Source: Verrucomicrobiales bacterium
GTDB lineage: Bacteria; Verrucomicrobiota; Verrucomicrobiia; Limisphaerales; Palsa-1400
Direction: 5' to 3'
Assembly (NCBI GenBank): GCA_003138485.1
Contig: PLGF01000173.1
Span: 31,281 to 95,280, forward strand
DNA length: 64,000 bases
The notes beneath the pieces are model-generated. The model saw only the letters and a list, made by a program, of their open reading frames with translations. It searched no databases and was not told where the DNA came from. Positions 41,533 to 59,836 of the stretch are shown one piece after another. Within the stretch, counting starts at the first letter, position 1. Each line of letters opens with the position of its first letter. A program made the position numbers and the translations under genes.

Positions 41533-41567
41533 GGTGACATTCTAAATTATTCTTTGACAACAGAGTT

Positions 41568-41822
41568 ATGGAAAGTTTGATCGAAGAACTCAAAGCCAAG
41601 ATCATTGCCGGGTTCAACCTCGAAGGCGTCACGGCCGCGGACATCAATCCTGACGCGCCGATTTTTGGCATGGGTCTGGAGCTGGATTCCATTGACGCCC
41701 TCGAACTGGTCGCCATTTTGGAGCAGGACTACGGCATCGTCATCCTCGAACGCTCCGTCGCGGACAAAGCGTTCGCCTCCCTCCGCGCTCTTGCCGAATT
41801 CGTCGCCGCCAACCGCGTCTGA
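41568..41822 (+). CDS. acyl carrier protein
   Basis: 84 aa; phosphopantetheine attachment motif GLELDSIDALEL. Confidence 0.8.
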   Translation: MESLIEELKAKIIAGFNLEGVTAADINPDAPIFGMGLELDSIDALELVAILEQDYGIVILERSVADKAFASLRALAEFVAANRV

Positions 41823-44215: not shown

Positions 44216-44226
44216 CCAGATACCAG

Positions 44227-44982
44227 ATGATTGTCGTCGCCACGCTCTGCGCGGCGGCGGTGATTTGTATTTCCCTTCGCGGTGCGGAGCGGATTTGGTG
44301 CCTGGCGGCGCTTTGCTCGCTGTCCGGTTTGTGCGTCGGTCTGGGCGTGTCGTTTCCGCGATGGCAGATGTTCGGGGAGAGTATCTGCGCCGCGGCGGCA
44401 AAACGGAAGATCGTCGCGCTGACCTTCGACGACGGACCGGACGCGCGGAACACGCCCGAATTGCTGGCGCTTCTGGCAGGGCGGAAAATTCGCGCCACGT
44501 TCTTTTGCGTGGGAATGCGCGTCGCGCAACAGCCTGAACTTGTCAAACGCATGGCTGCGGAAGGCCACGCCATCGAAAACCACTCCTTCCTCCACAGTCC
44601 TTTCACGAACATTTTCTCCGTCCGGCGCCTCCGGGGCGATTTGTCGCGCGCCCAGGCCGAAATCACCCGCGCCGCCGGGCGCGCGCCGGAGTTTTTCCGT
44701 CCGCCGGTGGGGTTGACCAATCCCCGGGTTTTCCGCGTAACGGGCGAGCTGGGTTTGAAAGTGGCCGGCTACACGGCGCGTGGATTGGACCGGCGAGGTG
44801 ACGCGCCGGAGGAGATCGCCGGGCGGTTGCTGCGCGAACTCCAGCCCGGGGCGATTTTTTTGCTGCACGACGGCGGCGTGCCGTGCAAACGGCTGCTGGC
44901 CGTGGTGACGTTGCTGTTGGACAAACTGGAGAGCGAAGGCTATCAATGCGCGCGGCTGGATGAATTGATCGCAGAACAATGA
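44227..44982 (+). CDS. membrane-anchored polysaccharide deacetylase (NodB domain)
   Basis: Two N-terminal TM segments, then ALTFDDGPD, HAIENHSFLH and FFRPPVG motifs. Confidence 0.7.
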   Translation: MIVVATLCAAAVICISLRGAERIWCLAALCSLSGLCVGLGVSFPRWQMFGESICAAAAKRKIVALTFDDGPDARNTPELLALLAGRKIRATFFCVGMRVAQQPELVKRMAAEGHAIENHSFLHSPFTNIFSVRRLRGDLSRAQAEITRAAGRAPEFFRPPVGLTNPRVFRVTGELGLKVAGYTARGLDRRGDAPEEIAGRLLRELQPGAIFLLHDGGVPCKRLLAVVTLLLDKLESEGYQCARLDELIAEQ

Positions 44983-45668
44983 GAATCCCCGACCGCAAAA
45001 TCATGCTGTGTTCATTGCTGCTGGCGATTTTCCCGCCCCGCGCCGGCGCCCAGACCAACCCGCCCGCGTCGCTGGAGAATATCAGCGCCGCGATGAGCCG
45101 GGCGCGAACGCTGTTCATGCGCTTCGTCCAGGAACGCCATTTGTCACTTTTCAACGAGCCGTTGCGCTCGGAGGGTTTCCTTTGCTTTCAAAAACCGGGC
45201 CGCATCCGCTGGGAGACCACCGTCCCCTACAAATCCATTTTGGTTTCCGACGGCTTCGGCACGGCGCAGTTCGAGTGGATGGACGGGAAATGGACGAAGC
45301 TGGATTCGGGCCTGGGCGACGCGCTGCAAAATGTCATGTCGCAGATCGCCGGCGTGATGGACGGGCGCTACGCCAATGACCGGCGGAGCTACGCCGCCAC
45401 GGTGACGAACATCGCCGGCGACCTGGTCGTCACGCTCGTTCCCCAAAACGAAACCGTGCGCACCATGATGGCGGCCATCGAAGTGCATCTGGCGGCCGAT
45501 TTGAAGGAAACCCGGCGCGTCGTGCTGCGCGAAAATGGCGGCGATTACACCGACATCCGCTTCAGCGAACAGTCCGTCAATTTTGAACCGCCTGCGGGTA
45601 CTTTTGACCGCGGCGCGCCCGTGGACATCGGGAAAATCCGTTCGGCGGCAGCCAACGCCAAACCGTGA
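44979..45668 (+). CDS. LolA-like outer-membrane lipoprotein carrier protein (cluster-associated)
   Basis: Signal peptide and LolA-fold sequence features (FVQER...SEGFLCFQKPGRIRWETTVPYKSILVSDG), in the position typical of the LolA-like gene of aryl-polyene-type clusters. Confidence 0.55.
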   Translation: MRIPDRKIMLCSLLLAIFPPRAGAQTNPPASLENISAAMSRARTLFMRFVQERHLSLFNEPLRSEGFLCFQKPGRIRWETTVPYKSILVSDGFGTAQFEWMDGKWTKLDSGLGDALQNVMSQIAGVMDGRYANDRRSYAATVTNIAGDLVVTLVPQNETVRTMMAAIEVHLAADLKETRRVVLRENGGDYTDIRFSEQSVNFEPPAGTFDRGAPVDIGKIRSAAANAKP

Positions 45669-45672
45669 GATC

Positions 45673-46383
45673 ATGACCGCGGGGCCAGGCAAAACGATAT
45701 TGTTGACCGCGCTGTATGTCGCGCTCAACGGCGGCTGCGCGGCGCGGGGTCCCATTGCCGCGCCCGCGGTTTTGCCCGATGACGGCGGCCGCCAGGCCGC
45801 ATTTGCCCGCGCCGGACGGACGATCGGGAATCTTTTCCCGGCGCAATACCGCTCAACCCAGCGCGCCATCGTGACGGCGGGCGGCAAGCAGTTCGCCTGT
45901 GACGGTTTGCTGAGCGTCTCGCCAGCCGAAGGCCACCACCTGGCCATAGTCAGCAGTTTTGGCGTGGTGACGGATTTGCGCGTGAAGGCGGATGGCGCCT
46001 GCGAACTGCTCAAGGTCACGCCGCTGTTCCGCGAAGACTGGAGCCGCCGGTACGTTGCGCGCGATTTGCGCCGGCTGTTCATTGCGCCGCCGAATTTGCG
46101 GCCCGCCGGCCGGCTCGCCAACGACAGCATTGTTCTGGAGACCGCGCCGGATTCCGACGGTGTGACGGCGCAATACATTTTTTCCGCCGACGGCGTCCGC
46201 TGGCTGGCGTTGGATTTGATTCGGAACGGGACAGCCCATTACCGCGCGACGCCGAAAAACTTCCGCAAATTCCCCGGAACGTCCGCCGAAATCCCCGGCG
46301 GGTTTGAGGTCAGCGCGGAGGCCTATCGCCTGGATCTGCGAATCACGGAACTGGCCGCGCCCGGAACGGAGGCGCAGCCGTGA
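45673..46383 (+). CDS. lipoprotein of unknown function (possibly DUF3261-like)
   Basis: Lipobox LNGGC after a signal peptide. No recognisable catalytic motifs. Confidence 0.45.
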   Translation: MTAGPGKTILLTALYVALNGGCAARGPIAAPAVLPDDGGRQAAFARAGRTIGNLFPAQYRSTQRAIVTAGGKQFACDGLLSVSPAEGHHLAIVSSFGVVTDLRVKADGACELLKVTPLFREDWSRRYVARDLRRLFIAPPNLRPAGRLANDSIVLETAPDSDGVTAQYIFSADGVRWLALDLIRNGTAHYRATPKNFRKFPGTSAEIPGGFEVSAEAYRLDLRITELAAPGTEAQP

Positions 46384-48059
46384 GCCGCCCGCGCAAATGG
46401 ATTCGGCGGTTGCTCTGGATCGCGGGCGGCGGGGTGATCGCGCTGGTGGTTTTGTGGGGCGTGATGCTCGCGCTGATGTATCAATGGGTGGCGCAGCCGC
46501 CGCCGCTGGCGCGGCCCCCGGCCATCGTTTCGCTCGCGCCCGAAGCCCGCGGCGACCGGGTCTATCTCGGCCAAAACTGGTTTGGCAGGCGCGATAACCT
46601 GCCGGTGCTTTACCTCGCCGGCGGGCCTTTTGAGATGGGTTATGCCAACGGAGTGTTGACACAGAAACTCATTCATCGCCAGGAGGATTCCGTGCTCGCC
46701 CTGCTCAATCGCGCCGCTCCCTGGAAGGGGCTGCAATTCGCGCTGAAGTTCTTTGTGACGTTCAAGAACCGGCATATCGCGGCGAACATCACGCCGGATT
46801 TGCAAATGGAAATGCTGGGCATCGCCAGCGGCTGTCCCGACGCCCATCCCGATATGGGCCCGTGTTACAACCGCGTTTTGAATTATCACGCCGCCCAGGA
46901 CATCTCCTACATGTTGATGAACAGCCCGCTCCTGCGGCGCGGCTGCACGGCCTTCGGCGCGTGGGGCGGCGCCACGATGGGAAGCCATTTGCTGTGCGGA
47001 CGCGATTTTGACTGGGAAGCCGACCCGGTGTTTGACGAGAATAGAGTTTTGATCATTTGCGAGCCGAGCAACGGCATCCCCTTCATTTCGCTGGCGTGGG
47101 CGGGCATGGCCGGCTGCGTTTCCGGCATGAACCGCGAAGGCGTTTCCATCGTCGTCAACGGAGCCCCCTCGCATCTGCCTGCCGACGGCGCGACGCCCAC
47201 GTGCCTGGTGGCGCGCGAGGTGTTGGAACACGCCCGCAACCTGGCTGAAGCGACCGCGATCATCCGCAAACGCCGGGTGTTCGTCTCCGCGATGTTTCTC
47301 ATCGGCAGCCGCGCGGACGGGAAATTCATCGTGGTCGAGAAGACGCCGGAAAAAACGGCCGTGCGCGAGCCGGAGAGAAGCGCGGACTGGCTTGTCTGCG
47401 CCAATCATTATCTGACGGCGGAATTGAAAGACGACCCGATCAACGAGACCTACAAACGCGCCGACACTTCGTTGCCGCGCTTTGAACGCATGACGGAGCT
47501 TCTGGGCGCTGAAACCAATCGTCTTGACGCGTCGGGATGCGCGGCGATTCTCCGCGACCGGCGCCTGCCCGGCGGCGGGTTTGCGGGCAATGGCCACCGC
47601 GCCTCGCTGAATCCCCTCATCGCAACGCATTCGGTGGTGATGGATTTGACGGCGGGAGTTTTCTGGGCCGCCACCCCGCCGCACCAGCTTGGAAAATTTA
47701 TCGCGTTCAACCTGGGCGCGCCGGAGGAATTATTGCCCGAACAAGCCTTGCCTGCTGATCCGATGCTCGGCGACGGCGAATACAAAAGCTATCTCGCCGC
47801 CAAAAGCGATCTGGGCGAGGGCTGGCGCGCTTTGAAAAAGGCCGATCTCGCCGCGGCGCTGGCGTTCGCGACGGCGGCGGAGAAGAACAATCCCGGTTTT
47901 TATCAGAACTCGTGGCTGTGCGCCGAGGTCCTCCTCCGCCAGGGCAAACAAGCCGAAGCGACCGATGCGTGTCAGCGCGCGCTGGCCGGCAAGCCGGCGC
48001 TGGCCGGAGAACGGCGGCGGATAGAACAACTCCTGGCCCGGGCGAAAGCGCTCCCATGA
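46380..48059 (+). CDS. peptidase C45 family acyl-CoA:6-APA acyltransferase-like protein with an N-terminal TM and a C-terminal TPR-like tail
   Basis: N-terminal TM, then the autoproteolysis/nucleophile region RRGCTAFGAWGG typical of C45 (Ntn-hydrolase) acyltransferases. Confidence 0.55.
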   Translation: MSRPRKWIRRLLWIAGGGVIALVVLWGVMLALMYQWVAQPPPLARPPAIVSLAPEARGDRVYLGQNWFGRRDNLPVLYLAGGPFEMGYANGVLTQKLIHRQEDSVLALLNRAAPWKGLQFALKFFVTFKNRHIAANITPDLQMEMLGIASGCPDAHPDMGPCYNRVLNYHAAQDISYMLMNSPLLRRGCTAFGAWGGATMGSHLLCGRDFDWEADPVFDENRVLIICEPSNGIPFISLAWAGMAGCVSGMNREGVSIVVNGAPSHLPADGATPTCLVAREVLEHARNLAEATAIIRKRRVFVSAMFLIGSRADGKFIVVEKTPEKTAVREPERSADWLVCANHYLTAELKDDPINETYKRADTSLPRFERMTELLGAETNRLDASGCAAILRDRRLPGGGFAGNGHRASLNPLIATHSVVMDLTAGVFWAATPPHQLGKFIAFNLGAPEELLPEQALPADPMLGDGEYKSYLAAKSDLGEGWRALKKADLAAALAFATAAEKNNPGFYQNSWLCAEVLLRQGKQAEATDACQRALAGKPALAGERRRIEQLLARAKALP

Positions 48060-48868
48060 AAACCCCATCCGAAACCTTCTACCCGCTGAAGGTCGCGCTG
48101 GGCTGCGTCGGCTATGCCAGCTATTTCGCGTCGAAGATCGTTTTCGTCGCGCTGGTTTTTCCGGCGTTTCTGATCCTGCTGCCCTTTCGGCGGGCGCGGC
48201 AACGTTTCATTCAGGTGGTGACGCATCGTTACCTGGGATTCTTTTCCCGCTGCTGGCTGCCCTTTATCGGCTCGTACCAGATCGCCGAGATTTCCGGCCT
48301 CCAACAGGCGCTGGCCGCGCGTCCGGCGGTCCTGGTGGCCAATCACCGCAGCCTGATGGACGCCCTGTTGGTGCTCGGCCTGCTGCCGCGCAGCGGCGCG
48401 TTGATAAAATCGCGCGACACGCGCAAGGTGATGAACGGCCTGCTGGCGCGCTATTTCGACTTGGTGAGCATTGACCGCGGCTCGCTGGAATCCGTTTCCG
48501 CCACGCTCGAAAAAAGCCGGCGCTTGCTGGCCGGCGGCAAGAACCTGCTGGTGTTTCCCGAAGGCACGCGCGCGCGCAGCGGGCGTCTGCAACATTTCAA
48601 CCTCATCGCCTTCGACCTGGCCCTGGCCGCCCGCGTGCCGGTGGTGCCGGTGATCCTCCACACCCCCTGGCCTTTCATGGCCAAGCTGCCCGGCAGCATC
48701 TTTCCCCGTCACCGCAACGATTACAGAATCCGGTTTCTTGACCCGGAGATTCCCGGCCGCGATGATGACGCCGCCGCGCTGTGCGATCGCGTCCATCGCC
48801 GGATGGCGCGGGAGCTGAAGCAATTGGACGCGGGCACGATCTGGGAAATCAAATCACCTCAGCCATGA
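48056..48868 (+). CDS. lysophospholipid / 1-acyl-glycerol-3-phosphate acyltransferase family protein (PlsC/OlsA-like)
   Basis: HX4D motif (ANHRSLMD) and FPEGTR motif; two N-terminal TM helices. Confidence 0.75.
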   Translation: MKTPSETFYPLKVALGCVGYASYFASKIVFVALVFPAFLILLPFRRARQRFIQVVTHRYLGFFSRCWLPFIGSYQIAEISGLQQALAARPAVLVANHRSLMDALLVLGLLPRSGALIKSRDTRKVMNGLLARYFDLVSIDRGSLESVSATLEKSRRLLAGGKNLLVFPEGTRARSGRLQHFNLIAFDLALAARVPVVPVILHTPWPFMAKLPGSIFPRHRNDYRIRFLDPEIPGRDDDAAALCDRVHRRMARELKQLDAGTIWEIKSPQP

Positions 48869-49347
48869 ATACCAAACCATTGTTTGCCCTGGAAGACATC
48901 CTGCCGGTGCTGCCGCATCGCCCGCCGTTTCTGTTTGTTGACCGCGTGATGCTTCTGGAGCCGCACAAACTCATCATCGCCGAACGCGCGCTGCGACCGG
49001 ACGAACCGCACTTTGCCGGGCATTTTCCGGGCCGGCCCATCATGCCCGGCGTGCTCATCGCCGAGGCGCTGGCCCAAACCGCCGGCCTGCTGATCGGCTT
49101 GAGCGAAAAACTCTCCGCCGCCGCCCCGCCGCAAAAACCCAAGGTGTTTTTTCTCGCTCTCACGAACATCAAGTTCACCCATCCCGCCGTGCCGGGCGAC
49201 GTGCTGGCCCTGCGCGCGGCCATCGACCGCCAGTTCGGCGCGCTGCATCGTTTCAACGTGGAAGCGACATCGGGCCGCAACCTCGTGGCCTCCGGCTCGC
49301 TGACTTTGGCGCTGGTTGAGGGAAACAACTCAGCCGCGAACGCCTAA
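48865..49347 (+). CDS. 3-hydroxyacyl-ACP dehydratase (FabZ/FabA-like hotdog)
   Basis: HRPPFLFVDRV...DEPHFAGHFPGRPIMPGVLIAEALAQ signature. Confidence 0.8.
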   Translation: MNTKPLFALEDILPVLPHRPPFLFVDRVMLLEPHKLIIAERALRPDEPHFAGHFPGRPIMPGVLIAEALAQTAGLLIGLSEKLSAAAPPQKPKVFFLALTNIKFTHPAVPGDVLALRAAIDRQFGALHRFNVEATSGRNLVASGSLTLALVEGNNSAANA

Positions 49348-51096
49348 AGCCTCAAAAATAATCCCAATCATCCGCCGGTTGGTTTCGGCGTCCTTGACGG
49401 CGATGCGCACGGCGCGGTTCCCCAAGCACGATCCCATCGTGGCGACGTTGCGCAGGAACAGGCCGCGCTCGCGGCAGCGGGCGATGAGGGCGTCGGCATC
49501 CGGGCCGTTCTCAGGCAGGTGGCACAGGACAAAGTTGGTGACGCCGGGAATGATCTCCCAGTTCAGGGGCTTGAGCGCCTCAATGAGTTGCAGCCGCAAG
49601 GCGCGCGTCTCCTGGTATTTCGCGGCGTAGTAGGCGGGGTCTTCGAGCGCCTTGACCGCGGCGATCTGGGCGGGAAGGCTCACGGCCCACGGCGGGGTCA
49701 GCGCCCGCAACGACTCCAGTTGATGCGGGCCGGCGCACAGATACGCCACCCGCGCCCCGCTCAGCGCATAGGCCTTGGACATCGACTTGCAGACAATTAT
49801 ATTTTCCGAACGCGCGGCAAACGGCTCAAGCGACTGGCCCGGCCCGGCGTAGTCAACGTAGGTTTCGTCCACCCACACGCGCGTCGCCGGGGGCGCCTTG
49901 CGCAAAGCGTCCTCCAGCTCTTCGCGCGGCACATGCTGGCCCGAGGGACTGTTGGGGTTGACCAGCACGATAAGGTCGTATTCGCCGGCCAGGCTCAACT
50001 CAAGGCGGCCCGGATCAAGGCGGTATTGTTCGGCGCGCGGCAAGGAGAGCCGCTCGACGCGGCAGCCAACGATGCGCTCCAGGACATGCGCGTATTCGCC
50101 GTAGGTCGGATCGAGTATCAGCACCCGCGAATCCGCCGTCAGCCAGCGTCCCAACGCCAGGAAGATCAGGTTGGAAGAACCGGCGCCAGGCAAAATGCAC
50201 TCCGGGCGCACGCCCCGCTCCCGCGCAATGGTCCGGATCAATCCTTCGCAGCCCGTCGGTGGCGACGCCCGCAGAATCTGCGGCAGGCGTTGCGCGAGCG
50301 CCGCGACGGCCTTGGGCGAGGGCGGGAACCAGGCGTCCAGCACGTCGGCATTGATGATCGAATCCAGCCGTTCCAGCGTTTGAAACTCGTCGCCGACGGC
50401 TTCAAAGAATTTCCCGCCGTGGTAGCAGGCGGCGGGCGTGTCAAACGCGACGCCGATCTGCCACGCTATTTCGGTCTGAACCCGCTCGAGGATAGGGCGG
50501 ACGCCGGGAAGGGCCGCGTGGATGTCGGCCAGGGTTCCATGCAGCAGGCCGTAGGTGACCGCGCCGGCCCGCACATCCTGGCCTGTCGGCTTAAGCCCGA
50601 CCCGGAGATGGATGTTGCGGATTTCCTTGCGGCCGATGGCCGCAATGCGCGTGCCGCCGCGCGCCTCGACCCAGCGAAACGCGGCATACATGAGCGCCGA
50701 GGCGAGAAGACTGCGCCGGGAGGCCTGCGGCACCGTGAGCAGGCGGATCTCGTAGAGTTTGTCGTCCACGGAAAAGGGCAGTTGCCCGCGCGTGAAATAC
50801 TTGTCAATTGAATAGCCTGCCCCGCCCGGCGGCGTGATCGATACGAATCCCGCGATCCGGCCGCCGTCGGCGACCACGATATAATGGTTGAACGCATCGA
50901 GCGAATCGGTCAGCCGCCCGGCCTCGTTGCGGGAATGTTGTCCCAGCTCGGCGGCATAAACCTCGTGGCGCATCCGGTAAATCGTTTCGCGGTCGCGCTC
51001 GTCCGCCATGCGCATGACCAGCCGGCGGGCGGACGGGAGGTCCGCGCCGGTTGGCTCATCCGACATCGTGGGTAATTGCAGGACCTTTGACGGCAT
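49330..51096 (-). CDS. fusion protein: N-terminal GNAT-like N-acyltransferase domain (OlsB / N-acyl-amino-acid-synthase-like) plus a C-terminal class I/II PLP-dependent aminotransferase (HisC-like)
   Basis: The N-terminal ~200 aa have a GNAT/LuxI-like fold pattern (YRMRHEVYAAELGQ...HYIVVADGGRIAGFVSI). The C-terminal ~380 aa have the NPNSPSG motif and the PLP-Lys motif SMSKAYALSGARVAY. Confidence 0.6.
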   Translation of the reverse strand: MPSKVLQLPTMSDEPTGADLPSARRLVMRMADERDRETIYRMRHEVYAAELGQHSRNEAGRLTDSLDAFNHYIVVADGGRIAGFVSITPPGGAGYSIDKYFTRGQLPFSVDDKLYEIRLLTVPQASRRSLLASALMYAAFRWVEARGGTRIAAIGRKEIRNIHLRVGLKPTGQDVRAGAVTYGLLHGTLADIHAALPGVRPILERVQTEIAWQIGVAFDTPAACYHGGKFFEAVGDEFQTLERLDSIINADVLDAWFPPSPKAVAALAQRLPQILRASPPTGCEGLIRTIARERGVRPECILPGAGSSNLIFLALGRWLTADSRVLILDPTYGEYAHVLERIVGCRVERLSLPRAEQYRLDPGRLELSLAGEYDLIVLVNPNSPSGQHVPREELEDALRKAPPATRVWVDETYVDYAGPGQSLEPFAARSENIIVCKSMSKAYALSGARVAYLCAGPHQLESLRALTPPWAVSLPAQIAAVKALEDPAYYAAKYQETRALRLQLIEALKPLNWEIIPGVTNFVLCHLPENGPDADALIARCRERGLFLRNVATMGSCLGNRAVRIAVKDAETNRRMIGIIFEALGVRG

Positions 51097-51105
51097 TGCG
51101 GGACT

Positions 51106-52035
51106 TTAGTTAAGGCGCGCGGCCATTTCAATGCCGCGCTGATTGTTGACGTTGCAAATCCTTGTCTCCCTCCCGAAGCCGTTGGCTCGCGCCAAACCGG
51201 ACAGCACGCGCCCCGGCCCGACCTCGAACAACGACAATTTTTCCGCCCCGCGCAACGAAGCCATCGCCGTCCGCCAGCGGACTGGCTCAACAAGGTTGCG
51301 GGCGATGAGTTGCCGGATTTCCCGCGCGTCGCTTTCCGGCGCGGCGGTGACGTTGAAAATCAACGGGGCCTGCGACGCGCGAAATTCAATCGTGTCGAGC
51401 CAGATCGAGAACTCGCGCCGCGCCCGCGCCATGAACGGGCTGTGCCACGGCCCGGCAACGGCAAGCCGGCGGCACTGGCCCAGCTTCTGAGCCGCAATGA
51501 CTGAAGCGAACTGTTCGAGCGCGCCATTCTCGCCGGAAACAACGATCTGGTTCGGGGCGTTGTCATTGGCCAAAACGATGGGCGCGCCGGTGAATTCCCG
51601 CGCGAGCAAACGCGGAACAGTGTCCCGCTCAACGGAAGTTACCGCGGCCATCCCCCCCGGCGCTCCGGCGGCGGCAGCCTCCATCAATTCGCCGCGCTTG
51701 GCTGCGATATCCACGGCGGCTTCAAAACTCACGATGCCCGCCGCCGCAAGCGCTGAGATTTCGCCAAGCGAATGGCCGAGAATTCTCTCCGGCCGCACGC
51801 CGCTCTCCAGCAGCCGGCGCAGATAGCCGAGTGAAACGCAGACCAGCAGCGGCTGAAGATTCCGGGTGCGCGTCAATTCGCGGTCCGGCCCGCGCAGGCA
51901 GATTCTTTCCAAATCGCAGCCCGTCCGGTCGCTCGCGCGGCCGACAAGCTCGCGAAACGGCGCATCCCCCTTGAACAGGTCCGAAGCCATGCCGGTCTCC
52001 TGCGAACCCTGGCCGGGGAAAAGAAACACATTCAT
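51106..52035 (-). CDS. fabD: malonyl-CoA:ACP transacylase
   Basis: FLFPGQGSQ and GHSLGE active-site motifs. Confidence 0.85.
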   Translation of the reverse strand: MNVFLFPGQGSQETGMASDLFKGDAPFRELVGRASDRTGCDLERICLRGPDRELTRTRNLQPLLVCVSLGYLRRLLESGVRPERILGHSLGEISALAAAGIVSFEAAVDIAAKRGELMEAAAAGAPGGMAAVTSVERDTVPRLLAREFTGAPIVLANDNAPNQIVVSGENGALEQFASVIAAQKLGQCRRLAVAGPWHSPFMARARREFSIWLDTIEFRASQAPLIFNVTAAPESDAREIRQLIARNLVEPVRWRTAMASLRGAEKLSLFEVGPGRVLSGLARANGFGRETRICNVNNQRGIEMAARLN

Positions 52036-52040
52036 CGCAA

Positions 52041-52784
52041 TCAAGCCGCTGTGGCGGTCAGGCCGCCATCCACGACAACGCACTGGCCCATGATGTAGGA
52101 GGCCGCATCGGAGGCCAGAAACGCGACGACGGCCGCGATTTCCTCGGGCCGCCCGAATCGTTTGAGGAGGATGCGTTCGAGGTTCTTCTCCTTGATCTGG
52201 CGCGGCACGCGCGCCGACATGTCAGTCTCAACGAAGCCGGGCGCGACGGAATTGACGCGGATGTTTCTGGAGCCCAGTTCCGCCGCAAGCGCCCGGGTGA
52301 ACGCCAGCAGCGCCCCTTTGGAGGCGGCGTAATTGGTCTGGCCCATGACGCCGATGATGCCGGCGATGGACGCCAGATTGATGATGACGCCGCGGCGCAC
52401 GCGGAGCATCGGACGGGTCACGGCCTTGCACCAGCGATAGACGCCGTTGAGGTTCGTGTCAATGACGCGGTTCCAGTCCTCCTCCGGCATCAGCATGAGA
52501 AACATATCGGCGGTGATGCCGGCGTTGTTGACCAGCACGTCAATCTTCCCGGCGGCGGCGATGATTTTTTCCACCGCGGCCTCTATGGCCCCGGCGTCGT
52601 CCTGCGCGCACTGGATGGCCTCGGCCTTTGTGGCGGCGGCAACTTCATCGGCCGCCTTCCCGTTCTGATGAAACGTAAAAAACACCCTCGCGCCCCCCGC
52701 GGCGAAGCGTTCCACGATGGCGCGGCCAATGCCGCGCGAACCCCCGGTGACGATGACGACTTGACCTTCAAATTCGAGGCTCAT
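52041..52784 (-). CDS. fabG: 3-oxoacyl-ACP reductase (SDR)
   Basis: TGGSRGIGRAI Rossmann motif, NNAGI, and the YxxxK catalytic dyad (YAASKGA). Confidence 0.85.
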   Translation of the reverse strand: MSLEFEGQVVIVTGGSRGIGRAIVERFAAGGARVFFTFHQNGKAADEVAAATKAEAIQCAQDDAGAIEAAVEKIIAAAGKIDVLVNNAGITADMFLMLMPEEDWNRVIDTNLNGVYRWCKAVTRPMLRVRRGVIINLASIAGIIGVMGQTNYAASKGALLAFTRALAAELGSRNIRVNSVAPGFVETDMSARVPRQIKEKNLERILLKRFGRPEEIAAVVAFLASDAASYIMGQCVVVDGGLTATAA

Positions 52785-52795
52785 AATTCAGGGGT

Positions 52796-53242
52796 TCATT
52801 TCAGCGCCTGGTAGCGCCGCCAGATTTCGTCGGGCCATTCCTTGACGAGTTTCCGGGTCTGCCTGTTTGACATCGTCACCGCGGTCTGGCCGAACGCCAT
52901 CGCGGCGCGATGTTTTTCGTGGATGAGGTAGTGGCTGAAGACCAGCCGCCCTTCGTAGGCGGGCTGGACGCGGTGCGTGGTGTAAAGGAGCAGCGGCATC
53001 CCCAATGTCACCGGCTTGCGGTAATGGCAGACGTTTTCCACCACGGGCATGAACACTCCCAGTTTCATCGCCTCCTCAAGCGGCAGCACTTCAAAGAGGA
53101 TCTGCAATCGGCCCTCCTCGAACCATAGAAAATAATTTGAGTTGTGAATCACGCCCATCATGTCCGTCTCGTGAAACGCCGGCTGGATGAGCCGCTTGCG
53201 CTTGATCAGGCGGCCTTTGGATTGGGACAACAGATTCAACAT
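52796..53242 (-). CDS. acyl-CoA/acyl-ACP thioesterase (4HBT/YbgC-like hotdog)
   Basis: 148-aa hotdog-fold pattern (HETDMMGVIHNSNYFLWFEEGR). Confidence 0.65.
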   Translation of the reverse strand: MLNLLSQSKGRLIKRKRLIQPAFHETDMMGVIHNSNYFLWFEEGRLQILFEVLPLEEAMKLGVFMPVVENVCHYRKPVTLGMPLLLYTTHRVQPAYEGRLVFSHYLIHEKHRAAMAFGQTAVTMSNRQTRKLVKEWPDEIWRRYQALK

Positions 53243-53255
53243 GCGCCCGCCTGGT

Positions 53256-54362
53256 TCACATCTCGTCGAGCTTCACCGTCAGGCTCTTCGGCACGATCGG
53301 CGGCATGGATATCGAACGCGCCACCGCGCCGTCGGGCGCGCCGACGCGGAATGGCAGGCCGGAAAACGCCAATTCCAACGGCAGCAATCCCAGCGCCAGC
53401 GGCTGGTTCAGCACATGCGAAACGCAGCCGGTCACGACCGCGCCCACGGCCCTGCCTTCGTGGAAAATCCGCGCGCCGCTCCGCAGCGCGGCGCAATCCG
53501 CGTCCGCCGCGAAACCGATGATTTTTTGCTTCAAGCCGGCGGCGCGGCGTTCCTTGATGGCCGCGCAGCCGCTGAAATTCTCCTTCTCCATATCCATCAT
53601 CCACTGCAAACCAAGCGGCAGGGGGTCGCGCACGATTTCGCCTTCGCGGAATATGTTGAAGAACCGCCCTTCCAGCCGGAGCGCGTCATGCGCGTCCGCG
53701 CCGGCAAGCCGTCCGCTCCGCTCATCAACCCCGGCCTTCAGCGCGTCGAACAACTCCGCCGCGATCTTCACCGGCGCCACCAGCAGGTAGCCGAACTCTG
53801 ACGTCTTGCCCGCCCGAATGAAGCGCACCGGCTCGCCCAGGAACTGGTAATTCTCAATCGACAGATAAGGCAGGCCGATGATGTCCGGGCCAAAAATCTT
53901 TTTTACAATCTCCCACGCCCTGAAACCATCCAGGCTCAGGACGACGTGGTCGGCGGTCAAATCCTTGGCCGGAGATTCTTTGCCCTCCAAAGAGAGCAGC
54001 GCGTTCAGTTGGGCGTCCGGCACAATGCTTTCGCAGATGAAGACAAACTCCTGGTCGTTGTTCGCTACGAAACAATCCGCGGCCAGTAGTCCATTGTTGT
54101 CGGCCAGAAACGTGTGGAGCACGCGGCCGAAGCGGATTTTGGGCACGTTGCCCGCCAGCAGCGCATCAAGGTAATCAATGCCAGGCGTCTCGGGCAGCGT
54201 GAAAACGCGCGCGAAAGAAAAATCCGCCAGCGCGGCGGCGTCGCGCACCGCCCCGCATTCGGCGCGCGGATTTCCAAAATGCGCCGCGACCTCGACGCCG
54301 TGGCGTTCACGAAACACCGCGCCGGCGGCGGCGAGCTTCTCTCTGAGAGGGGAGCTTCTCAC
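53256..54362 (-). CDS. aminomethyltransferase-family (GcvT/YgfZ-like folate-binding) protein
   Basis: GcvT-like fold features across the 368 aa (N-terminal folate-binding domain and C-terminal barrel). It is co-operonic with an ACP and the thioesterase. Confidence 0.45.
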   Translation of the reverse strand: MRSSPLREKLAAAGAVFRERHGVEVAAHFGNPRAECGAVRDAAALADFSFARVFTLPETPGIDYLDALLAGNVPKIRFGRVLHTFLADNNGLLAADCFVANNDQEFVFICESIVPDAQLNALLSLEGKESPAKDLTADHVVLSLDGFRAWEIVKKIFGPDIIGLPYLSIENYQFLGEPVRFIRAGKTSEFGYLLVAPVKIAAELFDALKAGVDERSGRLAGADAHDALRLEGRFFNIFREGEIVRDPLPLGLQWMMDMEKENFSGCAAIKERRAAGLKQKIIGFAADADCAALRSGARIFHEGRAVGAVVTGCVSHVLNQPLALGLLPLELAFSGLPFRVGAPDGAVARSISMPPIVPKSLTVKLDEM

Positions 54363-54655
54363 GCGCGGCCCCCTTTGGCGTCCTGCTGTACGATCACGAA
54401 GTCCACAACCGTATTGATTGAGCGCAACACGGAGATATTATCATCAGGAATCTTGATGTTGAAGCAGGTCTCCACGCACAGGACGATTTCCAGCGCGTCG
54501 AGCGAATCCAATCCCAAACCGGAGCCGAGCAGCGACACGTCCTCGTGCAAATCTTCCGGGAGGAAGGGCAAATTCAGGCGGCGGATCAATTCCTGTTTGA
54601 AGGTGTCTATCACCTGGCGCCGGCGCGCTATGGTTCGATCAATTGCTTCGGACAT
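54359..54655 (-). CDS. acyl carrier protein (second ACP of the cluster)
   Basis: GLGLDSLDALEIV phosphopantetheine site. Confidence 0.75.
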   Translation of the reverse strand: MSEAIDRTIARRRQVIDTFKQELIRRLNLPFLPEDLHEDVSLLGSGLGLDSLDALEIVLCVETCFNIKIPDDNISVLRSINTVVDFVIVQQDAKGGRA

Positions 54656-54751
54656 TAAGGCTTTCAGTTAAACCGCCATTTTTGCCCCCGCGCATCCGAT
54701 TATCAAGCCGAAATTGACAATCCTGGGGCAGATGGGCACGCTCCCGCCGCA

Positions 54752-56566
54752 ATGGCGGACCACCCTGTTTATGATGTGCTGATTGCCGGTGGCGGATTGG
54801 CTGGGCAATGCCTGGCCCGCCAACTCAAGCTCGCCCGTCCGGGTCTGTCCGTCGCCGTGGTTGATTATGAAAAAAGGCCTCTGCCCGAAGCGGCCTTCAA
54901 GGTCGGCGAAGCCACCTCGGAACTCGGCGCCCACTATTTTGCCGTCAAACTTCAGCTCAAGGATTACCTCAATCGCGATCAGCTTCTGAAGAACGGCCTC
55001 CGCTTTTTTTTCGGCGATGCGCAAGGCCCGTTGCAAGATCGTCCCGAGTACGGGCCGCGGCAGTTCCCGCCCATTTCGTCGTTCCAATTGGACCGCGGCA
55101 GACTGGAAAATCATTTGCGCGATCTCAATCAGGCTGCGGGCATCGCGTTGCTGGAAGGTTTCGCCGTGGGGGAAATCTCGCTCGGCGACAATGACGCGCC
55201 GCATACGACAGTCGCAATGGAACGCGACGGAGGCGAAAGGATTTCAATTCGCTCGACTTGGGTGGTGGACTGCACAGGGCGCCGGAGGATGCTTCAGAAG
55301 AAATTGAATCTCTGCCTGCCAAGTCCGTTGAAACACAGCGCGAGCTGGTTCCGCGTGAGGGGAGAGTGCAAGGTGGAGAACTTTGTGCCGGCGGACAATG
55401 TCGCCTGGCACGGGCAAGTTCCCGGCGGCATCCGTCATCGCTCCACCAACCATCTGGTGGGCCGCGGATACTGGGTTTGGCTCATTCCCCTTTCCTCCGG
55501 CAACACCAGCATCGGCATCGTTGTGGACGAGAGAATTCATCCGATTGCGGAGATCAACACCTGGGAAATGGCGCTGGCTTGGCTGGCGATTCATGAACCG
55601 GTCGTGGCACGGAACCTTGAAGGGGCCAGTGTGATGGATTTTTTGTTTCTCCGCGATTTCAGCTACGAAACCAAACAATTCTATTCCGCCGGCCGTTGGG
55701 CGTGCGTGGGCGAGGCGGCGGCGTTTCTTGACCCATTTTACAGTCCCGGCTCGGATTTCATCGCGATGGGCAACACGATGGCGACGCGTCTCATCAGCCG
55801 GCATTTCGAGAGAGGCCTGACCGACGCCGCCGTGGAGCAGAGCAACGCCACAATGTTGATGCTGCATCGCGCCTTCACCGAGGTTTTCCGCGACCAATAT
55901 CCGACGTTTGGCCGCGCGAAGGTGATGACGGCGAAAATTATTTGGGACAACGCCTCGTATTGGGTGTTCGTCTGCCAGGCGTTTTTTCAGGACATTTTTT
56001 TCGATGACGATTCCCTTGACCGCTACAGCCGCGTGTTCGACCGGTTTTACCAGCTCAATCTGCGCGTGCAGCAGTTGTTTCGCGATTGGGCGGCGCTTGG
56101 CCGCGACGGTTCCGGCTATGATTATCTGGGCTATGCGGATTTTCCGGTGGCCGCGCGCAGCCATCTGGAACTCGCCCGCAAAATGAGGCCGCGCCGTCTT
56201 CTGGAATGGCTTGAGTCAAACCTGGAGCGTTTTCGCGCGTGGGCCATTGTGCTCTTTCTCATCGCCATCGAAGATGCCGCTCCGGAATGGCGCGGGCGGA
56301 TCGCGGAGAAACACCTGACGACGGAGTTGATTGATTTGAATAATCTCCAGGCCGCCGCCGACGGGCGCGCTCCGAACCGCGCCGAAAGAAATCCCCCAGC
56401 GGCCGAAATCACCTCAATGAAACGCCAGATGACAAAGCTATTTCCCCATTATGATTGCCTGCGGGAAACCTCTGGCAGCGGCCAGCCCGCCGTTGCAACG
56501 AATAGCGTTGGACGGCCCCCGTCCAGAGCGGATGATTTCATTGCTTCAACGGCTCCACCGTTGTGA
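54752..56566 (+). CDS. flavin-dependent halogenase (tryptophan-halogenase family)
   Basis: FAD motif VLIAGGGLAGQ plus the family-specific WxWxIP motif (GRGYWVWLIPL). Confidence 0.65.
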   Translation: MADHPVYDVLIAGGGLAGQCLARQLKLARPGLSVAVVDYEKRPLPEAAFKVGEATSELGAHYFAVKLQLKDYLNRDQLLKNGLRFFFGDAQGPLQDRPEYGPRQFPPISSFQLDRGRLENHLRDLNQAAGIALLEGFAVGEISLGDNDAPHTTVAMERDGGERISIRSTWVVDCTGRRRMLQKKLNLCLPSPLKHSASWFRVRGECKVENFVPADNVAWHGQVPGGIRHRSTNHLVGRGYWVWLIPLSSGNTSIGIVVDERIHPIAEINTWEMALAWLAIHEPVVARNLEGASVMDFLFLRDFSYETKQFYSAGRWACVGEAAAFLDPFYSPGSDFIAMGNTMATRLISRHFERGLTDAAVEQSNATMLMLHRAFTEVFRDQYPTFGRAKVMTAKIIWDNASYWVFVCQAFFQDIFFDDDSLDRYSRVFDRFYQLNLRVQQLFRDWAALGRDGSGYDYLGYADFPVAARSHLELARKMRPRRLLEWLESNLERFRAWAIVLFLIAIEDAAPEWRGRIAEKHLTTELIDLNNLQAAADGRAPNRAERNPPAAEITSMKRQMTKLFPHYDCLRETSGSGQPAVATNSVGRPPSRADDFIASTAPPL

Positions 56567-57209
56567 AGTCCGGTTCCATTTTCACCTCAAACAACTGCGG
56601 GTCCAACGGCGGGTTCACCACGGGATGGTAAAATTCGTTGCGGAGGCTGGAACCATCGCTGAATGTCAACGCCGTGCCGACGGGCGTAAAGTCGTCCTCG
56701 CGAAAACTGATGTCGAGCCGCGCGATGAACTTGCGCGCCGCCCCGCTGCGCGGCTGCAGCGCCAGGGTGGCGACGCCGTTGGTCTCCGTCAGCGCGAGGA
56801 TTTGGAACTTGGCCTCCATGTTGGTGCGGCTGCGGGGGAAGCTCGCCTCAAGCAGTGCCAGCGCATCCTGCCACGGGCCGGGGTGGGCGGAGAGCAGCGG
56901 ATATTTCTCCACCCGTTTGAGACGGGGATAGACGATCATCAGTTCCGCCGCTTGGCGCAGGGCGATCGTTTGCGGCGGCTGCCCCAACTCCCAGCGGAAC
57001 CGGTCCGGCACGGCGATCCAGACCTTGCCGTCGGCAACGAGCGGCTGCGCCAGCGTCTTGAAACTGCGCGTCTGCACGATGTCCGCCGTCCACGTGCGCA
57101 GGTTCGCCTGCGCGGCGATCCACTTGTCCAGCAGATCGGCGGAACGGGCCGGAACGCCTGATAAAATGAACAGGATCGCCAGAAGCGGAATTCTTCCAAA
57201 AAAAGCCAT
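56538..57209 (-). CDS. LolA-like outer-membrane lipoprotein carrier / sorting protein (second copy)
   Basis: Signal peptide MAFFGRIPLLAILFILSGVPARSA. LolA-like features (WTADIVQTRSFKTLAQPLVADGKVWIAVPDRFRWEL). The start is set at the internal Met. Confidence 0.55.
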   Translation of the reverse strand: MAFFGRIPLLAILFILSGVPARSADLLDKWIAAQANLRTWTADIVQTRSFKTLAQPLVADGKVWIAVPDRFRWELGQPPQTIALRQAAELMIVYPRLKRVEKYPLLSAHPGPWQDALALLEASFPRSRTNMEAKFQILALTETNGVATLALQPRSGAARKFIARLDISFREDDFTPVGTALTFSDGSSLRNEFYHPVVNPPLDPQLFEVKMEPDFTTVEPLKQ

Positions 57210-57294
57210 CTGGAGATTATGGGGGGCCACCGCCGCAAACGCACGCCTGTTTTCCGGGCGCTTGACGAGCGGCTCAGGTTTGCCATGCTGCGAA

Positions 57295-59044: not shown

Positions 59045-59245
59045 ACCTTCAAATCATAGCATGGAAACTCCGTTCTTGCACCGGCATTCAGAAACGGCCT
59101 GGCGTGGCAGCCAGCGGACAGCGTGAAGTGGCGATTGACATAATGGGACCATTTCGATACTTTCGGTCACGCTTTGCGCGGCCCAGCGGCCGGGATAATA
59201 AATTCGGGAGCCGGGTCGCCAGAAAATGCGAAAATTGAAACGTCC

Positions 59246-59830: not shown

Positions 59831-59836
59831 GCTCGA

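Follow-up and report, generated by a model that had tools for sequence, protein, structure and literature searches.

What does a single protein do that carries both a GNAT acyltransferase domain and a PLP-dependent domain, and that is encoded among lipid genes? The question is raised by one gene, hereafter the target, in the window analysed here, i.e., the whole 64,000-nucleotide stretch of DNA. The layout of the target is as follows.

49330-51096, minus strand: GNAT + PLP-domain fusion gene (target), 588 aa, ATG start, stop codon at 49330-49332 (ORF list, Pfam)
50458-51027, minus strand: GNAT domain of the FeeM / N-acyl-amino-acid-synthase / LuxI-like type, residues 24-213 (Pfam, AlphaFold, Foldseek, conservation)
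50413-50421, minus strand: invariant His226-Gly-Gly (residues 226-228) at the start of the PLP domain (no exception in alignments A2, A3 and A4)
49333-50427, minus strand: PLP-dependent fold-type-I domain of the HisC/CobD subfamily, residues 224-588 (Pfam, NCBIfam, PDB alignments)

The initial annotation had described a fusion of a GNAT-like N-acyltransferase to a HisC-like aminotransferase at this position, and the fusion is borne out by the 588-aa reading frame, by Pfam matches to both domains and by the conserved residues. Its boundaries are reproduced by independent gene calls, and a protein identical to the target, P0001, is found in 47 blocks of the public collection. The gene is read from the minus strand, a point absent from the initial annotation. 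As judged from the alignments, the fusion is neither a chance ORF nor an assembly artefact, because both domains are under strong selection and their catalytic residues do not vary across phyla: they are invariant in 69 full-length fusions from several phyla, which share 49-87% identity with the window protein. The identities of the two domains and the conservation of both active sites are established. A model of the full-length target reached moderate confidence only (pLDDT 76, pTM 0.69), with low confidence for residues 438-472, a segment that includes the PLP lysine, and represents the monomer of a protein that is probably a dimer in its native state. We propose, with a probability of about one half, that the target is a self-contained bifunctional N-acyl-amine lipid synthase, in which the PLP domain would form an amine, the GNAT domain would acylate it and neighbouring enzymes would supply the later steps.

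The GNAT domain holds two invariant residues, E116 (50749-50751) and R118 (50743-50745), which are kept also in the most divergent members of the family. For the full-length window protein, Acetyltransf_1 is the sole Pfam GNAT model above its cut-off (residues 61-153, 26.1 bits versus 20.7). The FeeM model (PF21926) scores 19.3-22.1 bits against a gathering cut-off of 27, and Acetyltransf_5 (PF13444) scores 20.6 bits on the full-length protein and 23.0 bits on the domain alone, against a cut-off of 22.4. Across the family, FeeM is matched by 31 of 35 members and Acetyltransf_5 by 24 of 35 (E <= 1e-3), and several members score above the gathering cut-off, such as P0105 at 38.9 bits. Searched by sequence against the PDB, the isolated GNAT domain had no meaningful match, and the fold search alone was informative. 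The AlphaFold model of the domain is confident (pLDDT 87.6), and its top Foldseek matches over the whole domain are BjaI (E 6e-10, TM 0.65-0.70 over ~211 columns), LasI, RpaI, TofI and FeeM (2g0b, TM 0.61/0.71); MesI matches as well. The family-wide matches to FeeM and Acetyltransf_5, together with these folds, uphold the earlier assignment of the N-terminal domain to the GNAT branch that transfers long acyl chains to amino groups.

The same fold search could also point to a LuxI-like signal synthase, in which the GNAT domain would acylate S-adenosylmethionine or a related amine while the amino-acid part would be handled by the PLP domain; the product would then be a diffusible N-acyl signal instead of a membrane lipid. 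All of the five best fold matches are acyl-homoserine-lactone synthases, several members are labelled N-acyl-L-homoserine lactone synthetase in the JGI annotation, and the gene is mostly solitary, although 8 loci have a LysR regulator close by; yet the LuxI-type Pfam model Autoind_synth (PF00765) gives the window protein 12.5 bits versus a cut-off of 24 and is matched by 0 of 35 family members at E <= 1e-3. Nor was a LuxR-type receptor seen as a conserved neighbour in the best 80 loci, and PLP enzymes of the HisC/CobD type are not known to use S-adenosylmethionine. We regard a signal synthase of this kind as very improbable. Another alternative takes the Acetyltransf_1 match at face value: a short-chain GNAT acetyltransferase would be joined to a HisC/CobD-type enzyme from amino-acid or cofactor metabolism and would acetylate the product or substrate of that enzyme, with a role in detoxification or regulation, and its position in a lipid cluster would be incidental. 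Generic acetyltransferases do occur among the fold matches; however, the best full-length ones are synthases that transfer acyl chains, and the high frequency of FeeM matches in the family likewise argues for a lipid N-acylating domain. The genes around the target also bear on this alternative.

The target is the last gene of a minus-strand operon, and its 3′ end meets that of a convergent plus-strand operon.

54359-54667 (stop-to-stop bounds), minus strand: acyl carrier protein gene that opens the minus-strand operon (motif scan; PP-binding, E 2.6e-7)
53256-54362, minus strand: GcvT-like folate-binding aminomethyltransferase-family protein, target's operon (Pfam GCV_T, GCV_T_C)
52796-53242, minus strand: 4HBT-type hotdog thioesterase, target's operon (Pfam 4HBT_2, E 1.5e-11)
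52041-52784, minus strand: FabG-like 3-oxoacyl-ACP reductase, target's operon (Pfam adh_short_C2, E 2.3e-66)
51106-52035, minus strand: FabD-like malonyl-CoA:ACP transacylase (Pfam Acyl_transf_1, E 1.1e-39; independent 309-aa gene call)
48781-49347, plus strand: FabA/ApeI/ApeP-like dehydratase gene that closes the plus-strand operon (Pfam FabA, E 2.2e-23; ApeP-like and ApeI-like matches)
47912-48868, plus strand: PlsC-family acyltransferase (PF01553, E 2.4e-20; an independent gene call of 270 aa implies a later start)
41538-48059, plus strand: rest of the plus-strand lipid operon (Pfam), with the six genes that follow
41538-41822, plus strand: ACP
41822-44215, plus strand: KS/CLF-like 797-aa protein
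44011-44982, plus strand: polysaccharide deacetylase
44979-45668, plus strand: LolA-like protein
45535-46383, plus strand: 282-aa ORF without an assigned family
46380-48059, plus strand: AAT/Ntn-type acyltransferase-family protein
54752-63825, mixed strands: further cluster genes (Pfam), with the six genes that follow
54752-56566, plus strand: halogenase-like flavoprotein
56538-57563, minus strand: LolA-like protein
57025-58581, plus strand: beta-lactamase-family protein
59054-59758, minus strand: ORF without an assigned family
59837-62968, minus strand: MMPL exporter fused to a SAM methyltransferase
62965-63825, minus strand: DUF2062

The FabD-like gene lies directly upstream of the target, with its stop codon 9 nt before the target ATG, and the 3′ end of the convergent dehydratase gene overlaps that of the target by 18 nt. 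In the window's clade, the GcvT-like gene is co-conserved with FabD, FabG and the fusion (tblastn, loci L005-L015). The PlsC/OlsA-like acyltransferase that had been placed in the same cluster as the fusion is indeed present, but it belongs to the convergent plus-strand operon and does not share a transcription unit with the target. The surroundings as a whole resemble aryl-polyene (APE)/xanthomonadin-type clusters, with which they share two ACPs, a KS/CLF-like protein, an ApeI/ApeP-like dehydratase, FabG, a thioesterase and PlsC, as well as LolA-like proteins, an MMPL exporter, a methyltransferase and a halogenase-like flavoprotein. Described ape clusters contain the same component types, around a core of KS, CLF, two ACPs, dehydratases, a ketoreductase and a transporter (bioRxiv 10.1101/2020.12.19.423268), and the APE-type core set is present in the window cluster. 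No aryl-starter gene (AMP-ligase, ammonia-lyase or chorismatase) was recognised among the ORFs scanned from 40 to 64 kb.

The GNAT domain has relatives in 266 species genomes, and the neighbourhood statistics refer to the best 80 species-level loci among them. PLP sequence follows the GNAT domain in frame in 74 of these 80 loci, and the fusion ORF is intact in 68. Intact fusions are found in Verrucomicrobiota, Planctomycetota, Acidobacteriota, Chloroflexota, Nitrospirae and Omnitrophota, and two cultured Verrucomicrobium strains carry one. In Gemmata, the GNAT and PLP parts are adjacent genes, and several GNAT relatives stand alone, with no PLP partner; among these, P0292 and P0307 had no relevant conserved neighbours, and a scan of viral contigs with P0238 found no relatives. 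This wide distribution of the fusion is established, as are the neighbourhood statistics. The domain pairing had been put forward as undescribed, and we likewise found no described function: databases name the family only histidinol-phosphate transaminase or generic aminotransferase/decarboxylase-like protein, and two recent aminolipid reviews make no mention of such a fusion enzyme. The pairing is not rare, however, being present in at least six phyla. The GNAT-PLP fusion family is uncharacterised and common in soil bacteria of several phyla.

Just one type of neighbour recurs in different phyla, a PlsC-family acyltransferase: 18-19 of the best 80 loci, from at least five phyla, have one no more than ~8 kb away. 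It is usually adjacent and on the same strand, and it is often of the Aas type (PlsC+AMP-ligase) or the LplT-Aas type (MFS+PlsC+AMP-ligase). The link to an aryl-polyene-like lipid cluster is confined to 10 of the best 80 loci, all from the window's own clade. The idea that the fusion is a regular component of aryl-polyene-type clusters was rejected on this count. The initial annotation had placed the fusion inside the lipid cluster and had it use acyl-ACP made there, a description that fits only the window's own clade; elsewhere, the gene stands alone or beside an Aas-type acyltransferase. Rare members carry a further domain on the GNAT-PLP core, i.e., PlsC (P0145), FabD (P0105, FabD+GNAT+PLP) or the lipid-phosphate-enzyme domain PAP2_C (P0266). 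An incidental association with lipid genes would agree with the about 60 of the best 80 loci in which no lipid gene adjoins the fusion, but it accounts poorly for the strong enrichment of PlsC-family genes beside it, for the fusions to PlsC, FabD and PAP2_C, and for the tight operon with ACP, FabD and FabG in the window's clade. A non-lipid enzyme with a short-chain acetyltransferase consequently appears improbable.

For the proposed N-acyl-amine lipid synthase, the PLP domain has to provide the amine. It is complete, as the initial annotation had it, and all cofactor-binding residues are present. Aminotran_1_2 (PF00155) matches residues 261-578 (E 4e-33, 115.5 bits versus a gathering cut-off of 19.7). 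The NPNSPSG motif at residues 380-386 (49939-49959) includes N382, and the PLP lysine K441 (49774-49776), in SMSKAYALSGARVAY, has the cofactor lysines of CobD and HisC as its counterparts in the alignments; N382, D410, Y413, R449 and K441 are invariant in the family, the most divergent members included. The His-Gly-Gly at the start of the domain falls within 3 residues of the place that extrapolation of the alignment predicts for the N-terminal His8-Gly-Gly arm of CobD; a PDB search with the segment containing it gave no significant alignment to CobD or HisC.

Assignment to the HisC/CobD subfamily stands, but the specificity of an aminotransferase, as first proposed, does not follow from it. 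Among NCBIfam models, the CobD model TIGR01140 scores highest on the window protein, at 187-189 bits, far below its curated equivalog cut-off of 290.55, and it also has the best family-wide E-value; the HisC model TIGR01141 gives 166-168 bits, likewise far below its curated cut-off of 276.55. The best NCBIfam and PDB matches are CobD-type Thr-/Ser-phosphate decarboxylases, level with or slightly ahead of HisC, and the top PDB profile match, 6oux, bears the product name of a CobD homologue linked to ethanolamine-linker norcobamides. Because CobD-type decarboxylases match as well as HisC, with all scores far below the cut-offs, the amine may arise by decarboxylation and not by transamination. 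The genomic context of the family is unrelated to histidine synthesis, and the annotation as a histidinol-phosphate aminotransferase is almost certainly wrong as a functional name. Chemistry like that of serine palmitoyltransferase (an alpha-oxoamine synthase), paired with a ceramide-synthase-like GNAT, was also considered and is out, all best PLP matches being of the HisC/CobD type.

Two further arginines, R549 (49450-49452) and R564 (49405-49407), are invariant and align with CobD R323 and R337, the arginines that bind the substrate phosphate in CobD and HisC. They suggest, and do not prove, a phosphorylated substrate for the PLP domain; the same two arginines are also found in HisC-family aromatic aminotransferases, in which they could bind a carboxylate. 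A literature search on the structural basis of CobD substrate binding yielded nothing usable.

A true HisC-like aminotransferase would lead to a different scheme, close to that of the initial annotation, in which the PLP domain makes an alpha-amino acid or ornithine-like compound out of a keto precursor, the GNAT domain N-acylates it with cluster-made acyl-ACP to an N-acyl amino acid or an aminolipid of the ornithine-lipid kind, and the PlsC/OlsA-like enzyme then O-acylates this product. N-acyl amino acid synthases and OlsB belong to the families FeeM and Acetyltransf_5, the PlsC-family neighbour parallels the OlsB/OlsA pair, every PLP-domain member matches HisC models (E down to 4e-57) and some of the HisC-family structures matched are annotated as aromatic or phenylalanine aminotransferases (4r2n). 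Common amino acids, however, are already present in cells, so that a dedicated, always-fused transaminase to form them would be redundant, and HisC scores no higher than the models and structures of CobD-type decarboxylases. The Asp position of the HisC GADEG motif, whose acidic residue contacts the substrate imidazole, is moreover an invariant serine in the family (S308, in GAGSS[ND]) and a threonine in the two decarboxylases aligned; the PAP2_C fusions point to a phosphorylated lipid, and cluster-made acyl-ACP could apply to only 10 of the 80 loci. Taken together, these data make an amino-acid-forming transaminase unlikely.

The reaction sequence that we propose for the N-acyl-amine lipid synthase has three steps, for which substrate, reaction and product are predicted. 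In the first step, the PLP domain, as a distinct branch of the HisC/CobD subfamily, would make a small primary amine, most likely a 2-aminoalkyl phosphate; this could be ethanolamine phosphate or aminopropanol phosphate, by decarboxylation of Ser- or Thr-phosphate, or serinol phosphate, by transamination of dihydroxyacetone phosphate. In the second step, to judge by family and fold, the GNAT domain would move a fatty acyl chain from acyl-ACP, or possibly acyl-CoA, onto this amine. The expected product, an N-acyl amino-alcohol (phosphate), would be an amide lipid with one chain, similar to a short ceramide phosphate. In the third step, as the neighbours suggest, a PlsC-family enzyme would add a second acyl chain, or a PAP2-type enzyme would remove or exchange the phosphate. 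In the window's clade, the gene would have been recruited as the last gene of the ACP/GcvT-like/thioesterase/FabG/FabD operon, and since this operon faces an aryl-polyene-type lipid cluster, the acyl donor there is probably cluster-made acyl-ACP. The enzyme itself seems self-sufficient.

A bolder and rather doubtful extension is that the family makes N-acyl ethanolamine-phosphate or serinol-phosphate lipids, look-alikes of a short ceramide-1-phosphate or of endocannabinoid precursors, and so constitutes a widespread, unrecognised sphingolipid-like route to amide lipids in Verrucomicrobiota, Planctomycetota, Acidobacteriota and others of soil and freshwater, including giant-virus- or eukaryote-like contigs. 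On contigs that look like giant viruses or eukaryotes, the GNAT-PLP core is joined to a PAP2_C membrane domain of the sphingomyelin-synthase type.

Animal receptors are known to bind bacterial N-acyl amides, commendamide and N-acyl serinols among them, and under phosphate stress aminolipids substitute for phospholipids. If the proposed function is true, hundreds of environmental bacterial species need only one gene to make an amide-linked lipid or a lipid-like signal, a gene of the fusion family that current annotation hides under the name histidinol-phosphate transaminase. A new and widespread head-group-forming enzyme would then be relevant to membrane biology, lipid biomarkers and natural-product discovery. 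For the window's Verrucomicrobial clade, the same function would suggest that the lipid made by the aryl-polyene-like cluster has an unusual head group in amide linkage. In the APE lipids described, the head group is GalNAc-phosphate-glycerol, and a GNAT-PLP enzyme is unmentioned there (bioRxiv 10.1101/2020.12.19.423268).

Among characterised enzymes, the PLP domain is matched best, in sequence and in profile, by CobD (Salmonella enterica, 1lc5), SMUL_1544 (Sulfurospirillum, 6oux), Cj1436 (C. jejuni), Cj1437 and RtxA. The target shares the PLP-binding residues and the two arginines with the CobD-type enzymes. Cj1437 converts DHAP into serinol-P and Cj1436 converts Ser-P into ethanolamine-P (PMC11800397), while RtxA also forms serinol-P from DHAP (PMC3222319). 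CobD-type enzymes, Cj1437 and RtxA all yield small amino-alcohol phosphates, but they have no GNAT domain, and their products go to cobamides, capsule or rhizobitoxine and not to lipids. HisC has the same fold, belongs to the same subfamily and gives significant HMM matches; the target differs from it by the extra GNAT domain and by the serine at the GADEG Asp position.

The closest logic may be that of hm-NAS from Gemella haemolysans, reportedly described by Cohen and colleagues in Nature in 2017 as a two-domain protein, in which an N-acyl synthase and an aminotransferase-type PLP domain together make N-acyl serinol. On this description, one protein would supply the serinol amine and N-acylate it, the logic that we propose for the target. 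Full-text searches of the open literature gave no description of the domain architecture of the Gemella enzyme; the product of the Gemella nas gene is given there as N-acyl serinols (PMC13012048). If the reported architecture is correct, the domain pairing is probably not undescribed in principle. Gemella is a human-associated Firmicute, whereas the target family is mainly found in environmental Verrucomicrobiota, Planctomycetota and Acidobacteriota, and the two may not share the order of their domains, the PLP subfamily or the head group. Like OlsB/OlsA, GlsB/GlsA and OlsF, finally, the target GNAT family is often partnered with a PlsC-family O-acyltransferase. Enzymes of the OlsB, GlsB, OlsF and FeeM type are single-domain proteins or are fused only to an O-acyltransferase, and they use ready-made amino acids; in the target family, by contrast, a putatively amine-forming PLP domain is fused almost obligatorily to the acyltransferase.

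The target gene is a 588-aa open reading frame on the minus strand (49330..51096 in the ORF list), and the identical protein is present in 47 blocks of the public protein collection, with independent gene calls agreeing on its boundaries. Two Pfam domains are recognised in it:

Residues 61-153: Acetyltransf_1, 26.1 bits against a cut-off of 20.7
Residues 261-578: Aminotran_1_2, E 4e-33

The initial annotation had described a fusion of a GNAT domain to a PLP domain, and the reading frame, both domains and the quoted motifs are all found, i.e., NPNSPSG at residues 380-386 and the PLP lysine, K441, within SMSKAYALSGARVAY. We favour, at a probability of roughly one half, a reading of this protein as a self-sufficient two-step amine-forming N-acyl lipid synthase; any single head group is less likely.

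The sequence of the GNAT domain matched none of the solved structures, and an AlphaFold model built from 35 homologues is confident (pLDDT 87.6, pTM 0.82). Its best PDB folds are the acyl-homoserine-lactone synthases BjaI, LasI, RpaI, MesI and TofI (~211 columns aligned, E down to 6e-10, TM 0.64-0.71), and FeeM is also among the matches (TM 0.61/0.71). The alternative that these folds bring to mind, a LuxI-like signal synthase, is very improbable; in the Pfam scan of the family (n = 35), Autoind_synth matches 0 of 35 members, FeeM 31 and Acetyltransf_5 24. Generic acetyltransferases are fold matches too, but across shorter spans, and it is quite doubtful that the protein is a non-lipid acetyltransferase fusion. 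By its Pfam matches, the GNAT family groups with N-acyl amino acid synthases. The Glu-x-Arg pair of a central strand (E116 and R118) is unchanged across phyla in the alignments, and the N-terminal motif R-H-x-V-Y-A-x-E-L-G-Q is invariant from phylum to phylum. Given the FeeM/Acetyltransf_5 family matches and the LuxI/FeeM-type folds, the initial N-acyltransferase-type reading of the domain is sound, although the full-length window protein scores under the Pfam cut-offs of Acetyltransf_5, Autoind_synth and FeeM (gathering score).

The PLP domain is complete (residues 224-588, a length close to that of CobD) and keeps the cofactor-binding residues N382, D410, Y413, K441 and R449 in the alignments. 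It scores 187-189 bits with the CobD model TIGR01140 (cut-off 290.55) and 166-168 bits with the HisC model TIGR01141 (cut-off 276.55). CobD is likewise ahead of HisC among 24 diverse members (best E-values 2.2e-60 and 3.8e-57, respectively). By these scores, the domain is a member of the HisC/CobD subfamily that lies outside both equivalogs. What stands of the earlier label, a HisC-like aminotransferase, is the complete PLP enzyme of this subfamily, but the HisC cut-off is missed and CobD scores higher.

Against the PDB, the family profile retrieves 6oux (127 bits), CobD 1lc5 (125 bits) and then HisC structures (at most 121 bits). Entry 6oux bears the name 'threonine phosphate decarboxylase-like enzyme', under which the product of Sulfurospirillum SMUL_1544 is also recorded; we take this product to be a decarboxylase of serine phosphate. 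An ethanolamine linker is a feature of norcobamides. The title of one paper ties SMUL_1544 to norcobamide biosynthesis. At the Asp position of the HisC 'GADEG', the fusion family has an invariant Ser and both decarboxylases a Thr, and an E-Y pair is common to the fusion PLP domain and CobD. An invariant His226-Gly-Gly lies at most 3 residues from the His8-Gly-Gly site that the N-terminal sequence of CobD presumably carries, as extrapolated from the profile alignment, the HGG segment alone giving no significant alignment. Each of these three features tips the comparison somewhat towards a decarboxylase. That the domain, with its kinship to HisC, would be a genuine amino-acid-forming transaminase yielding N-acyl amino acids appears unlikely. 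R549 and R564 are invariant and align with CobD R323 and R337, the type of arginines that, in CobD and HisC structures, presumably grip the substrate phosphate ester. The characterised enzymes of the subfamily make small amino-alcohol phosphates: Cj1436 decarboxylates Ser-P to ethanolamine-P and Cj1437 transaminates DHAP to serinol-P (PMC11800397), a transamination also performed by RtxA (PMC3222319). From these enzymes and the aligned arginines, we infer that the product would be a 2-aminoalkyl phosphate, formed by decarboxylation or transamination.

The fusion gene is the final gene of a tightly packed minus-strand operon, 9 nt separating the FabD stop from the fusion ATG. The genes preceding it are:

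54359-54667, minus strand: ACP
53256-54362, minus strand: GcvT-like protein, folate-binding aminomethyltransferase family
52796-53242, minus strand: 4HBT thioesterase
52041-52784, minus strand: FabG
51106-52035, minus strand: FabD, directly before the fusion

A facing plus-strand operon encodes an ACP, KS/CLF, a polysaccharide deacetylase, LolA, an unknown ORF, an AAT/Ntn-type protein, PlsC and an ApeI/ApeP-like dehydratase; the PlsC-type acyltransferase that the initial annotation saw in the same cluster is thus found in this convergent operon. The 3′ ends of the dehydratase (plus) and fusion (minus) genes overlap by 18 nt (49330-49347), and therefore separate terminators have no room. The cluster continues with genes for a halogenase-like flavoprotein, another LolA, a protein of the beta-lactamase family, an MMPL protein fused to a methyltransferase, and DUF2062. 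This component set agrees with aryl-polyene-type lipid clusters (bioRxiv 10.1101/2020.12.19.423268), and no aryl-starter gene was recognised among the cluster ORFs scanned in the window.

Several of these neighbours deserve mention in their own right. The GcvT-like gene, inside an operon of ACP, thioesterase, FabG and FabD, is kept beside the fusion in 10 of 10 cluster-linked loci. The MMPL-methyltransferase protein (59837-62968, minus strand, 1043 aa) is an unusual fusion of an MMPL-type exporter to a C-terminal SAM-dependent methyltransferase, with homologues conserved at locus L010. At 46380-48059, the plus-strand operon encodes a 559-aa member of the acyl-CoA:6-aminopenicillanic-acid acyltransferase (AAT/Ntn-hydrolase) family, which gives the cluster a second candidate for N-acyl transfer or amide cleavage. 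Just upstream of the cluster (34438-40231, minus strand), a WD40-repeat Ser/Thr kinase of 1289 aa is encoded together with a leucine-rich-repeat protein of the BspA type. Kinase-WD40 proteins also lie beside the split GNAT/PLP pair of Gemmata (L003/L004), and their tblastn matches occur near the fusion at several further loci, including L036, L069 and L083; this may be coincidence, because such proteins are common in these phyla.

A search with the full-length protein returned 120 fusions of at least 61% identity, among which the few named hits are from Verrucomicrobiota and labelled histidinol-phosphate transaminase. Searched exhaustively, the GNAT domain by itself gave 639 clusters (50% identity), among them fusions of ~560-615 aa, standalone proteins of ~200 aa and a small number of further architectures. 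With each species represented by a single genome, GNAT relatives were found in 266 genomes. The best 80 of these loci are chiefly from Verrucomicrobiota, include two cultured Verrucomicrobium strains (BvORR106 and BvORR034; L027 and L033) and also cover Planctomycetota, Acidobacteriota, Chloroflexota, Nitrospirae, Omnitrophota and Methylomirabilota, the taxon labels of some MAGs (e.g., 'Bifidobacteriaceae') being evidently wrong. PLP sequence follows the GNAT domain in frame at 74 of these 80 loci, an intact fusion ORF of 560-690 aa is present at 68, and the PLP part is absent at 5; in Gemmata, the two parts are neighbouring or frame-shifted genes. By the in-frame and intact counts across several phyla, the GNAT-PLP pairing is ancient, widespread and nearly obligate. 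Standalone GNAT relatives (~200-220 aa, ~50% identical; L037, L038, L060, L068, L001 and L002) are found in Chloroflexota, Acidobacteriota and others with no PLP partner or lipid genes nearby, and presumably acylate a ready-made amine.

Among the best 80 loci, the complete cluster set is present only at L005, L006, L008, L011, L013 and L014. L007, L009, L010 and L015 mainly keep FabD, FabG and GcvT, with weak KS matches at three of them and, at L010, additional MMPL-methyltransferase and DUF2062 homologues. At the remaining best-80 loci, no cluster gene lies near the fusion, save for a few weak low-identity matches. The tie to the aryl-polyene-type cluster is clade-specific; the fusion had been placed inside a lipid cluster, which holds for the window and its clade but not for the other loci. 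In an unbiased clustering of neighbour ORFs, the only partner to recur beyond the clade was an Aas-type protein, which joins a PlsC-type acyltransferase to an AMP-ligase and in some loci bears an extra, LplT-like N-terminal MFS domain. The architecture and neighbour search proposed in the initial annotation shows a widespread fusion whose sole recurrent partner beyond the clade is this Aas-type protein. With a small PlsC-domain HMM (0.97 Mb covered), a PlsC-family gene was found within ~8 kb of the fusion at 18 of the 80 loci; L081, where the Aas gene runs off the contig end, is a 19th. These partners, from at least 5 phyla, mostly lie next to the fusion on the same strand. Because genomes usually hold few such PlsC/Aas genes, the family is strongly enriched near the fusion, although these loci are not independent of one another phylogenetically.

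Rare architectures join the same core to PlsC (PlsC+GNAT, P0145), FabD (FabD+GNAT+PLP, P0105) or PAP2_C (PAP2_C+GNAT+PLP, P0266; PAP2_C 43 bits against a cut-off of 27). P0238 and P0251 have membrane N-termini with motifs like the PAP2_C of P0266, and P0381 likewise carries an N-terminal membrane domain on the GNAT+PLP core. As domain associations, the PlsC, FabD and PAP2_C fusions reinforce the lipid link of the core. PAP2_C is the type of catalytic domain found in lipid-phosphate phosphatases and sphingomyelin synthases, and its fusion agrees with a phosphorylated N-acyl amino-alcohol intermediate.

P0105, an NCBI-derived protein of 884 aa that shares 64% identity with the window protein, unites in one chain what the window encodes as neighbouring genes, namely FabD (51106-52035) and the target; it could be a true fusion or the product of a lost stop codon. 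P0145 (L085, 989-2398) combines a PlsC-type acyltransferase with GNAT, without the PLP domain. The genes after it encode an NAD_binding_9 protein of 749 aa, a cupin and an FMO-like monooxygenase, so the N-acyltransferase may here serve another pathway. The contig that encodes P0238 (L086, 5236-7341) is 12.9 kb long and also carries genes for PCNA, a staphylococcal-nuclease-like protein and a GlcNAc-transferase, along with numerous ORFans; it resembles a giant-virus or eukaryote-associated genome, not a bacterial one. A viral-contig scan with P0238 gave zero relatives.

In the proposed two-step synthase, the PLP domain would convert a central metabolite, e.g., phosphoserine or DHAP, to a small amine that is probably an amino-alcohol phosphate, and most loci would need no helper genes because of this origin of the amine. 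The GNAT domain would next N-acylate the amine with acyl-ACP as donor, which in the window's clade is plausibly made by the adjacent type II system and carried on the operon's ACP. A second chain may come from a PlsC-family enzyme, as OlsA follows OlsB. The N-acylated product may also have its phosphate processed by a PAP2 enzyme.

Compared with known enzymes, the target misses the curated thresholds of HisC, CobD and LuxI, and its FeeM and Acetyltransf_5 scores are borderline; therefore, it is not to be filed in any of those equivalogs. By analogy, it probably acts in the manner of a FeeM/OlsB-type N-acyltransferase coupled to a CobD/Cj1437-type amine producer. Two recent aminolipid reviews mention no aminotransferase, PLP enzyme, serinol or ethanolamine in a head-group-forming role, and neither does the stieleriacine study of planctomycete N-acyl synthases. 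To our knowledge, the sole precedent for such GNAT-PLP enzyme logic is the Gemella N-acyl serinol synthase, reportedly a two-domain enzyme. Its gene and products have been described (PMC13012048). The GNAT-PLP fusion is real, widespread and mis-annotated, with a predicted function and a concept anticipated by the Gemella enzyme.
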